Shown: one piece after another, positions 30,715 through 33,700 of the stretch
Numbering within the stretch: the first letter of the stretch is position 1
Layout: every line of letters starts with the position of its first letter
Assembly (NCBI GenBank): GCA_003251635.1
Contig: QKEW01000013.1
Coordinates: 2,023 to 66,022, forward strand
DNA from: a bacterium
Lineage (GTDB): Bacteria; Patescibacteriota; Minisyncoccia; Moranbacterales; GWC2-37-73
DNA length: 64,000 nt
Direction of reading: 5' to 3'
Position numbers and translations under genes: made by a program
Notes under the pieces: generated by a model
What the model was told of the DNA's origin: nothing
The model's database searches: none
Seen by the model: only the letters and a program-made list of their open reading frames with translations

Positions 30715-33700
30715 GGTTACTTAATGCATATGGTGGATGCCTTGACTGAAGTAAGCGATGAAGGACGTAGCAGGTTGCGATAAGCCTCGGGGAGTTGCCA
30801 AGCAAACTTTGATCCGGGGATGTCCGAATGGGGCAACCCAATCTCACTTAGTGGGATTATCCTGAACTGAATCAATAGGTTCAGGAAGCACACCCTGGGA
30901 ATTGAAACATCTTAGTACCAGGAGGAAAAGAAAACAATTGTGATTCCGCAAGTAGTGGCGAGCGAACGCGGATCAGCCTAAACCCATCCTTCGGGATAGG
31001 GGGTTGCGAGATAATTGGACTCGTTTGATCGGGACCAGTCGTAAATCATTAGCAAAATATTCTGGAAAGTTTAACCATAGCGGGTAATAGTCCCGTATGC
31101 GAAAATCATTTACGCCAGGTGCAATTATTCTCAAGTAGGGCGGGACCGGAGAAATCCCGTCTGAATCTGGGAGCACTACACTTCCAAGGCTAAATATTAC
31201 TTCAGATCGATAGCGAACTAGTACCGTGAGGGAAAGGTGAAAAGCATCCCGGTGAGGGAGGTGAAATAGAACTGAAACCATGTGCTAACGAAGAGTTGGA
31301 GTCCCGTCGCCCTCGGGCGACAGGATGACAGCGTGCTTTTTGCAGAACGAGCCAACGAGTTAGTTTTATGCGGCTTGTCTAAGAGGTGAATCCCTCGGAG
31401 ACACAGTGAAAGCGAGCCTTAATAGGGCGTCCGTCGCATGAACTAGACCCGAAGCCAGACGAGCTACATATGAGCAGGGTGAACTCTGGGTAACACCAGG
31501 GGGAGGCCCGAACCCACGCGCCGTGCAACACGCGGGGATGACTTGTGTGTAGGGGAGAAATTCCAATCGAGTTTGGCAATAGCTGGTTCTCTCCGAAATA
31601 GCTTGAGGGCTAGCGTCATGTAATTACACTCAAGAGGTAGAGCTACTGAATGGGATATCCGCTTTCGGGTAGGGATCCCAATCAAACTCCGAATTCTTGT
31701 AGTGCGTACCATGGCAGTCAGAAATCCGGCGCTAAGGTCGGATCTCAAAAGGGAAACAGCCCAGATCATCATCTAAGGTCCCTAAATCTATGTTAAGTGG
31801 AAAAGGAAGTGAAGTTTCTTATACATCTAGGAGGTTGGCTTAGAAGCAGCCACCCTTTAAAGAGTGCGTAACAGCTCACTAGACTAGAGACTTCGCGCCG
31901 AAAATGTAACGGGGCTAAACATAGTACCGAAGATATGGACTCCGCGCTATGCGCGGATTGGTAGGAGAGCGTTCTTTGTGCGTCGAAGCGTAAGGGGTGA
32001 CCCGTCGTGGAGCGCAAAGAAGTGAGAATGTTGGCATGAGTAACCACAATGTGGGTGAAATCCCCACACACCGTAAGTCTAAGGTTTCCTGGGCAACGTC
32101 GATCGACCCAGGGTTAGTCGGTCCTAAGGCGAGGCTGAAAAGCGTAGTCGATGGACAACAGGTTAATATTCCTGTACTGCGGTAATATTCGAAGGAGTGA
32201 CGCATCTTAGTACACTTGGCGCCTTATTGGATTGGCGTAGGCATTTTAAGGACGTTGTGTAGGTAAATCCGCACAACATTAAGTCCAAGAAATGACTGGA
32301 CTTTTTCGCTTGCGAAGAGGAACTAAGTGGAGCAGGGTGCCAGGAAAAACTTCTAAGGTTAATATTATCGTATCCGTACCGAAAACCGACACAGGTAGAC
32401 GAGGCGAGTAGCCTAAGGTGAACGGGAGAACCTTCGTTAAGGAACTCGGCAAAAAAACTAGGCGTAAGTTCGCGAGATGTCTTGCCGGTGCCACACATTG
32501 GGAATTCCAAAAATAAGTTTTGGTGCTTCCGATGTGTGGTGCTGGCCGCAGTGAAAATTTCCCAAGCGACTGTTTACCAAAAACACAGGTCTCTGCTAAA
32601 GCGCAAGCTGATGTATAGGGGCTGACACCTGACCAGTGCTGGACCGTTAAGGGGATTGGTGCAAGCTAATTCCTGAAGCATCCAGTGAACGTCGGCGATA
32701 ACTATAATCGTCCTAAGGTAGCGAAATTCCTTGTCGGGTAAATTCCGACCCGCATGAAAGGTGTAACGACTTGGGAACTGTCTCAACGAAGGACCCGGTG
32801 AAATCGCAATGACGGTGAAGATGCCGTCGACCTACAGCAAGACGAAAAGACCCCGTGGAGCTTTACTACAACTTGGTATTGAATTAGGATTCTAGTTGCC
32901 GAGCATAGGTGGGAGACTTTGAAACTGTGTTTTCGGATGCAGTGGAGTCAACAGTGGAATACCACCCTGCTAAAGTTTTAATTCTAACCCTGGTCTGTTA
33001 TGAGTCAACAAGACTTATAGATGATGAATCATGAAATAATTTTTTCTGATTTGTTTGACACAGAAGTTGTTTTCATGGTTCAAAATCGTAGAAGTCTTAG
33101 TGATTCATATCCAGACCGGGAACAGTGCCTGGCGGGTAGTTTGACTGGGGCGGTCGCCTCCTAAATGGCAACGGAGGCGTTTACAAAGGTTGGCTAAGTC
33201 CGGATGGAAATCGGGCTGATAGCGCAAAAGCACAAGCCAGCTTTACTGGAAGACCCATAAGTCGATCAGTTACGAAAGTAGAATTTAGTGAACCGACCAT
33301 CCCACGTAGGTGGGTGGAAGATCATCAGATAAAAGTTACCCCGGGGATAACAGGCTGATCCCTCCCAAGAGTCCACATCGACGGAGGGGTTTGGCACCTC
33401 GATGTCGGCTCATCGCATCCTGGGGCTGGAGAAGGTCCCAAGGGTTTGGCTGTTCGCCAATCAAACCGTCGTGAGACAGGTTGGTCTCTATCTGCTGTAG
33501 GCGTGGTTGCTTGAGAGGACTTTTTCCTAGTACGAGAGGACCGGAAAGAACGAACCTCTGGTGTATCGGTTGTTCCGCCAGGAGCATTGCCGAGTAGCTA
33601 TGTTCGGAAGAGATAACCGCTGAAAGCATCTAAGCGGGAAGCTCACCTCGAGATAAGGCAACAGTTATACTTCGGTATAACAGGACATCCTGGAAGACTA

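Follow-up and report, generated by a model that had tools for sequence, protein, structure and literature searches.

The 23S ribosomal RNA (rRNA) gene in a contig assigned to Candidatus Moranbacteria, a member of the Candidate Phyla Radiation (CPR, or Patescibacteria), is missing 23 nucleotides of domain V, and we consider it very likely that this gap is an error in the metagenome-assembled contig and not a property of the organism's working ribosome. The gene lies in a 64,000-nucleotide stretch of contig QKEW01000013.1 (assembly GCA_003251635.1, positions 2,023 to 66,022), which is referred to here as the window. The missing bases include the whole 3' strand of a helix whose 5' strand remains orphaned in the gene, and which we take to be helix 90 (H90) in the usual numbering, together with three bases of the peptidyl-transferase center (PTC) ring.

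A clean gap in an otherwise full-length 23S rRNA gene

The gene is 3069 nucleotides (nt) long and gives a full-length match to Rfam model RF02541, scoring 2526.8 bits over model positions 1-2925 against a gathering score of 50. Window positions 33448-33488 read directly as ggctgttcgccaatcaaaccgtcgtgagacaggttggtctc. About 23 model positions are empty at this region in the Rfam LSU_rRNA_bacteria alignment, and the motifs CTGGGTT, TTAGAAC and GGTACG have zero occurrences in the whole gene (30710-33778); the original prediction, made from the letters of the sequence, had correctly reported the first two as missing.

Loci of relatives were fetched through homologs of the neighboring protein, and four Moranbacteria relatives cover the site: L005, a JGI contig with a complete 23S gene; L008, from ENA; and L010 and L011, both from JGI. 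The three JGI contigs come from as many samples, and the ENA sequence from one assembly. Across the site each relative has GGCTGTTCGCCAA-TTAAAGCGGTACGCGAGCTGGGT-TCAAACCGTCGTGAGACAGGTTGGTCTC (the right flank is also given as TCAAACCGTCGTGAGACAG), and the window differs from them by a single clean 23-nt deletion of TTAAAGCGGTACGCGAGCTGGGT, with zero mismatches in the flanks. The deletion form of the site is GCCAATCAAACCG and the intact form is GCCAATTAAAGCGG. Owing to one shared T, the junction can be placed at a33460/t33461 or, equivalently, at t33461/c33462, and the E. coli equivalents of the lost bases are accordingly 2562-2584 or 2563-2585. The loss of universally conserved domain V sequence that the original prediction had put at about 25 nt thus stands, at 23 nt, by both the Rfam alignment and the four relatives.

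When run on the window itself, the program cmscan sets the gap ~20 nt closer to the 3' end, at helix 93 (model positions ~2613-2633), and mis-assigns the helix 93 stretch as the 3' strand of H90. The shift arises from the likeness between CGUGAGACAGGUU, which survives, and CGCGAGCUGGGUU, which is lost. We rejected this placement, since near-identical relatives provide one with zero mismatches that, judged from these alignments, is the parsimonious choice.

The lost segment belongs to helix 90 and the peptidyl-transferase ring

Positions were numbered against E. coli MG1655 rrlH (RefSeq), aligned to the window and to the relatives. In this alignment GGCTGTTCGCC corresponds to E. coli 2549-2559, and its TGTTC loop is therefore U2552 G2553 U2554 U2555 C2556, the A-loop. 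The A-loop has been defined as U2548-A2560, with G2553 pairing with C75 of the A-site transfer RNA (tRNA) (d'Aquino et al. 2020, PMC7049736). The helix 92 hairpin TTGGC-TGTTC-GCCAA is intact, with the A-loop at 33451-33455, and the Rfam structure line over it reads <<<<<_____>>>>>. The features of the gene and of the site are as follows.

30710 to 33778, forward strand: 23S rRNA gene of the Candidatus Moranbacteria (CPR/Patescibacteria) contig of a metagenome-assembled genome (MAG); RF02541; 91.2% identity to the 23S gene at 6653-9686 of L005
33406 to 33416, forward strand: 5' strand CGGCTCATCGC, also written CGGCUCAUCGC, of the helix closing the H90-H92 arm, its partner being the deleted segment; Rfam '(((((((((((' over CgGCUCguCgC
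33446 to 33460, forward strand: helix 92 hairpin with A-loop, intact; rrlH numbering, Rfam structure and the A-loop definition of PMC7049736
33460 to 33462, forward strand: deletion junction; alignments with L005, L008, L010, L011 and E. coli
33464 to 33482, forward strand: helix 93 AACCGTCGTGAGACAGGTT, with the A2602 equivalent, intact; Rfam <<<<<<<____>>>->>>> on identical L005 sequence
33529 to 33542, forward strand: sarcin-ricin loop AGTACGAGAGGACC, intact; Rfam alignment and motif coordinates
33862 to 33970, forward strand: 5S rRNA gene, following the 23S gene; Rfam RF00001, 78.9 bits

The original prediction had named the missing piece as helix 92 with its A-loop, and here it does not hold. 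It had taken CTGGGTT(T/C)A for the A-loop, but this motif corresponds to U2580-A2587, where the 3' strand of H90 ends and nucleotides of the central ring follow; by numbering and by structure the A-loop is the UGUUC of GGCUGUUCGCC and not CUGGGUUUAG. The covariance-model alignment that it had proposed as a check supports it in part: the ~23 positions are indeed unfilled, but the nucleotides of helix 92 are present.

On the structure line of L005 the deleted bases are a linker of 5 nt (UUAAA), the 3' strand of the helix, 16 nt long, and the two bases that open the central-loop segment. The lost equivalents include A2572, C2573, G2576 and U2580, together with G2582, G2583 and either U2584 or U2585 of the PTC ring, which includes G2582-G2588 (PMC7049736); the missing core-helix strand and PTC-ring positions are highly conserved. 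Relative to canonical 23S domain V (E. coli H90-H93; RF02541) the window gene keeps H89, the 5' strand of H90, H91, H92 with the A-loop, H93 and the sarcin-ricin loop in near-consensus form, and the original prediction was right in reporting both the upstream peptidyl-transferase region and the downstream sarcin-ricin loop as present. It differs from the canonical form in lacking the linker that follows H92, the entire 3' strand of H90 and the three PTC-ring bases, so that the E. coli 2567-2588 segment, with a complete central ring and H90, is not found in it.

The expected defect, as far as the conserved structure predicts it, is a collapse of the H90-H92 arm, which would have no closing helix, and a catalytic ring short of three residues. 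Such a loss would be at least as damaging as loss of the A-loop; single mutations of U2585 cut in vitro activity to about 2-21% (PMC7049736). The suggestion in the original prediction that this 23S could not position A-site tRNA conventionally was therefore misdirected, since the A-loop and H92 are intact and what has gone is the H90 3' strand with G2582-U2584/5.

The remainder of the gene and its locus are normal

The 23S gene of L005 scores 2634 bits in the RF02541 search, compared with 2526.8 for the window gene. Along the 91.2% identity between the two, the 23-nt gap is the only large deletion; the remaining indels are of 1-6 nt, apart from one 45-nt insertion in a variable region. The two genes match at 100% identity over 324 nt around the junction, 263 nt before it and 61 nt after it, a block that includes the orphaned 5' strand and shows no compensatory changes; the nearest species-specific base downstream is a T at window position 33522, where L005 has C, 61 nt from the junction. 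No further degenerative changes are seen across the gene. An old pseudogene is ruled out by the overall identity, the lack of any other large deletion and the 324 identical nucleotides, and the pseudo-copy envisaged by the original prediction is disfavored for a gene that is otherwise pristine and occupies a single orthologous locus.

Gene order in the window – an MS-channel gene, 23S, 5S, an FxLYD-like gene, FtsW, L25, a tRNA synthetase, TatD and ATP synthase – is the same as in L005, and this comparison shows the 23S gene to occupy the orthologous 23S-5S locus. The flanking proteins are 72% identical to those of L005 upstream and 60-70% downstream, a divergence that we regard as equal on the two sides. 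Because gene order is the same and the flanks have diverged equally, an extra copy of the gene appears unlikely, and neither an Rfam scan nor a search with the deleted 23-mer found a second 23S gene or 23S fragment in the 64-kb window. Nor is there support for a junction that fuses two genomes into a chimera, given the equal divergence of the flanking proteins from L005 and a 23S identity that is steady across the site. Homologs of the protein encoded just downstream of the 5S gene are named as Candidatus Moranbacteria, Moraniibacteriota or Patescibacteria MAG proteins, and the exact protein is recorded from one 70,116-bp contig (NCBI, JGI, Logan); the window is thus part of a CPR metagenome-assembled contig.

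Searches for the junction and for similar gaps

No second assembly covering the window junction was found. For SRR7216773, a sequencing run in which this organism is present, the Logan contigs end at window position ~30969 and resume at 33616. A 52-nt species-level pattern from just downstream of the junction, scanned against JGI metagenome contigs – a collection outside which the window's own contig lies – returned only the contig of a relative (L005/L009). Exact look-ups of a minus-strand open reading frame (ORF) that spans the junction, in its 97- and 83-amino-acid forms, gave no record. A homology search with this ORF against 5.8 billion protein clusters gave at least 8000 matches, all of them spurious rRNA ORFs; among the 120 best matches listed none was nearly identical across the whole length of the query. 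All nine that were aligned hold the intact segment, appearing with an 8-amino-acid gap because an extra 1 nt elsewhere restores the frame. As an observation in its own right, the spurious antisense ORF at window positions 33336-33629 (minus strand) has at least 8000 'homologous proteins' of 105, 122 or 152 amino acids, which shows that rRNA genes are widely mis-called as proteins.

Similar gaps were sought in one genome per species from 185,579 species, as a shortening of 14-31 nt between GGCTGTTCGCC and CGTGAGACAGKTYGGTC. Two species genomes were positive, both of them unrelated MAGs, and the organism studied here was not returned. An alphaproteobacterial MAG (L004, JAGWAT010000020.1, 1368-1413) lacks 16 nt, E. 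coli 2568-2583, and a gammaproteobacterial MAG (L003, JARRMW010000284.1, 1052-1082) lacks 31 nt at the same place; both deletions overlap the segment lost in the window. These two cases may reflect chance, a recurrent artefact or recurrent real alleles. The missing piece itself is not encoded nearby, as the 23-mer TTAAAGCGGTACGCGAGCTGGGT has no match with up to 3 mismatches on either strand of the 64-kb window; the single 3-mismatch match in the window to an E. coli-type 17-mer is at chance level.

Origin of the gap

We infer a technical cause from a gap that is private to one assembly, in a gene and locus that are otherwise normal, and that falls within a repeat-like block where assemblies break. 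Organisms that differ by 9% across their whole 23S genes share the block around the junction in identical form, so that it acts as a repeat in short-read metagenome assembly; the contigs of three of the four relatives start shortly upstream of the site, at 145 nt (L008), 51 nt (L010) and 29 nt (L011). The gap could have arisen through a mis-resolved path or join within this ultra-conserved rRNA block, common to co-occurring relatives, or alternatively through an aberrant read or polymerase chain reaction product taken into the contig at the block. The true 23S of the organism would then most likely read ...GCCAATTAAAGCGGTACGCGAGCTGGGTTCAAACCG... as its relatives do. Assembly artefact had been among the options offered by the original prediction, and it has become the leading one.

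A related Moranbacteria scaffold illustrates how such genes can go astray. In L007 (ENA scaffold ANAN16-1 scaffold_25, 8155-9577) a 23S gene of only ~1.4 kb spans model positions 1-2925, with position ~1220 joined to ~2940 and ~1.7 kb, roughly domains III-V, gone. A second assembly of the same organism, L008, encodes an identical neighboring protein (P0031) and has, in its positions 1-619, the region of the PTC and the sarcin-ricin loop ahead of a 3' end that it shares with L007; on this comparison the L007 gene is probably collapsed or mis-scaffolded. The window gene resembles the mis-assembled rRNA genes of MAGs (L007, L003 and L004) in its internal loss of conserved 23S sequence between otherwise normal flanks. 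It differs from L007 in that L008 holds 358 nt of the stretch missing there, the studied site included, whereas no such counterpart was found for the window.

Several observations weigh against an assembly error. The junction has only 1 nt of microhomology, and the region forms no stable hairpin (the DNA fold of the intact region has z = -1.35), so that no specific slippage, collapse or hairpin-skipping mechanism can be named. Since a de Bruijn assembler needs k-mers that span the junction, some molecule or read bearing the deletion probably existed, and the junction may have full support in the sequencing data. A clean deletion with no Ns or mismatches would also fit a genuine mutation. Two particular routes to an error were considered. 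An origin by hairpin skipping or slippage draws no support from the unremarkable fold, and the near-repeat CGCGAGCTGGGTT/CGTGAGACAGGTT, 21 nt apart, is out of register with a 23-nt deletion. The idea that the deletion brought the conserved block below the k of the assembler was rejected: with the 23 nt left out, 324 nt are still shared with L005, and in either form the block greatly exceeds the length of any k-mer.

A real deletion in a non-functional allele, either a recent defective or lethal variant carried by part of the population and by chance chosen by the assembler, or one of two 23S copies with the intact one at work elsewhere in the genome, is an unlikely alternative that ranks second. 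The clean junction and the implication of k-mer assembly that it was present in some sequenced molecule agree with such an allele, the complete identity of the flanks to those of relatives fits a very recent event, and the overlapping deletions in two other MAGs mean that alleles of this kind may exist in nature. Yet the gene lies at an orthologous, syntenic 23S-5S locus with no other decay, the window holds no second 23S or fragment of one, and a lethal allele would be expected to be rare in the population and normally to lose in a consensus assembly. CPR bacteria generally have a single rRNA copy, which counts further against a non-functional second one.

That the deletion is real and the rRNA functional seems to us very improbable. 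In such a ribosome the PTC would work without the H90 3' strand and G2582-U2584/5, with CGUGAGACAGGUU or a protein perhaps compensating; cmscan does thread CCG--UCGUGAGACAGGUU onto the H90 3' strand positions with few non-canonical pairs, and CPR ribosomes are known to be reduced (PMC9297842). The threading, however, costs H93 and the A2602 region, no compensatory changes accompany it around the junction, and known CPR losses lie only at the surface of the ribosome (PMC9297842). All four relatives keep the segment identical, hence there is no lineage trend, and a feature of the lineage is ruled out. In its strictest form – the only 23S gene of the organism genuinely deleted and its ribosome nonetheless working with a rebuilt PTC core, possibly by re-pairing of CGUGAGACAGGUU with the orphaned 5' strand of H90 – we find the proposal scarcely credible. 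To our knowledge every ribosome described so far, including highly reduced mitochondrial ones, has a conserved PTC core.

We give hardly any credence, too, to a split rRNA, in which the 23-nt piece would be encoded elsewhere and either provided in trans or put back at the level of the RNA. Fragmented rRNAs do occur in some organelles and bacteria, and the gap itself is what such an arrangement would leave, but known cases of fragmentation take out spacers in helices at the surface and leave core strands in place, the relatives are contiguous at the site, and the failure of the 23-mer to match in the window leaves the piece encoded elsewhere, as the original prediction had offered, unsupported. 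Either a functional core-deleted ribosome or a split rRNA would be extraordinary, and the findings support neither.

Other features of the window and of related loci

At window positions 32490-32534 (gene position ~1780) the gene carries 45 nt, GCCACACATTGGGAATTCCAAAAATAAGTTTTGGTGCTTCCGATG, that the 23S of L005 does not have; this insertion is presumably an expansion of a variable helix or else a reduction in the relative. A different insert, AT-rich and with tandem repeats of the GAAATTA type, is present in the 3' terminal domain of the 23S gene of a GW2011-type Moranbacterium (L008 ~400-500, L007 ~9380-9470), and looks like an expansion or an intervening sequence.

No 16S gene lies within the 64-kb window. 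A 23S-5S pair with no 16S gene nearby is found both in the window (30710-33970, in 64 kb) and in L005 (6653-9887, in 20.8 kb); this clade has an unlinked rRNA operon. Three tRNA genes at 25.3-25.9 kb of the window, two tRNA-Met (CAT) and one tRNA-Asp (GTC), form a cluster at 25372-25886, ~5 kb upstream of the 23S gene. An ORF of 306 amino acids at 33973-34893 starts 3 nt past the end of the 5S gene and is ~30 amino acids longer than nearly all of its homologs, which have 268-280 amino acids and cover ~88-90% of the query; its true start is probably further downstream. GC skew is strongly positive (~+0.2 to +0.3) across almost the whole window (1-64000), where nearly all long ORFs are on the plus strand, and falls to ~0-0.1 in two intervals with genes on the minus strand, 50-56 kb and 58-62 kb.

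Significance

Known variation in CPR rRNA provides two points of comparison. The reductions described for CPR 23S rRNA, 23Gap1-4, correspond to H9, H63, H78 and H98, all at the ribosome surface, and leave the core conserved (Tsurumaki et al. 2022, PMC9297842). The window gene is from the same superphylum and likewise misses an rRNA segment relative to E. coli, but those reductions are lineage-wide and lie at the surface, whereas the gap reported here is shared by none of the four relatives, is private to one contig, and removes positions of the catalytic core. Group I introns and homing endonucleases insert in CPR 23S genes at 1917, 1931, 1952, 2593, 2604 and 2657 (PMC11270868). These sites cluster around the PTC, some of them ~10-20 nt from the window junction, and they add complexity to assembly graphs in CPR-rich samples; they are, however, insertions that are spliced out, whereas the window has lost sequence, carries no intron-like insert, and has its junction at none of the listed sites.

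The assignment of the loss is corrected here from the A-loop to the 3' strand of H90 and the PTC ring. Were the deletion both real and functional, it would overturn the view of the PTC core as invariant in all ribosomes, although the evidence points the other way. What the gap provides instead is a flag for quality control: the rRNA genes of MAGs can hold small internal deletions in ultra-conserved regions, and defects of this kind would introduce errors into rRNA alignments, into surveys of structure and into claims of 'reduced ribosomes'.

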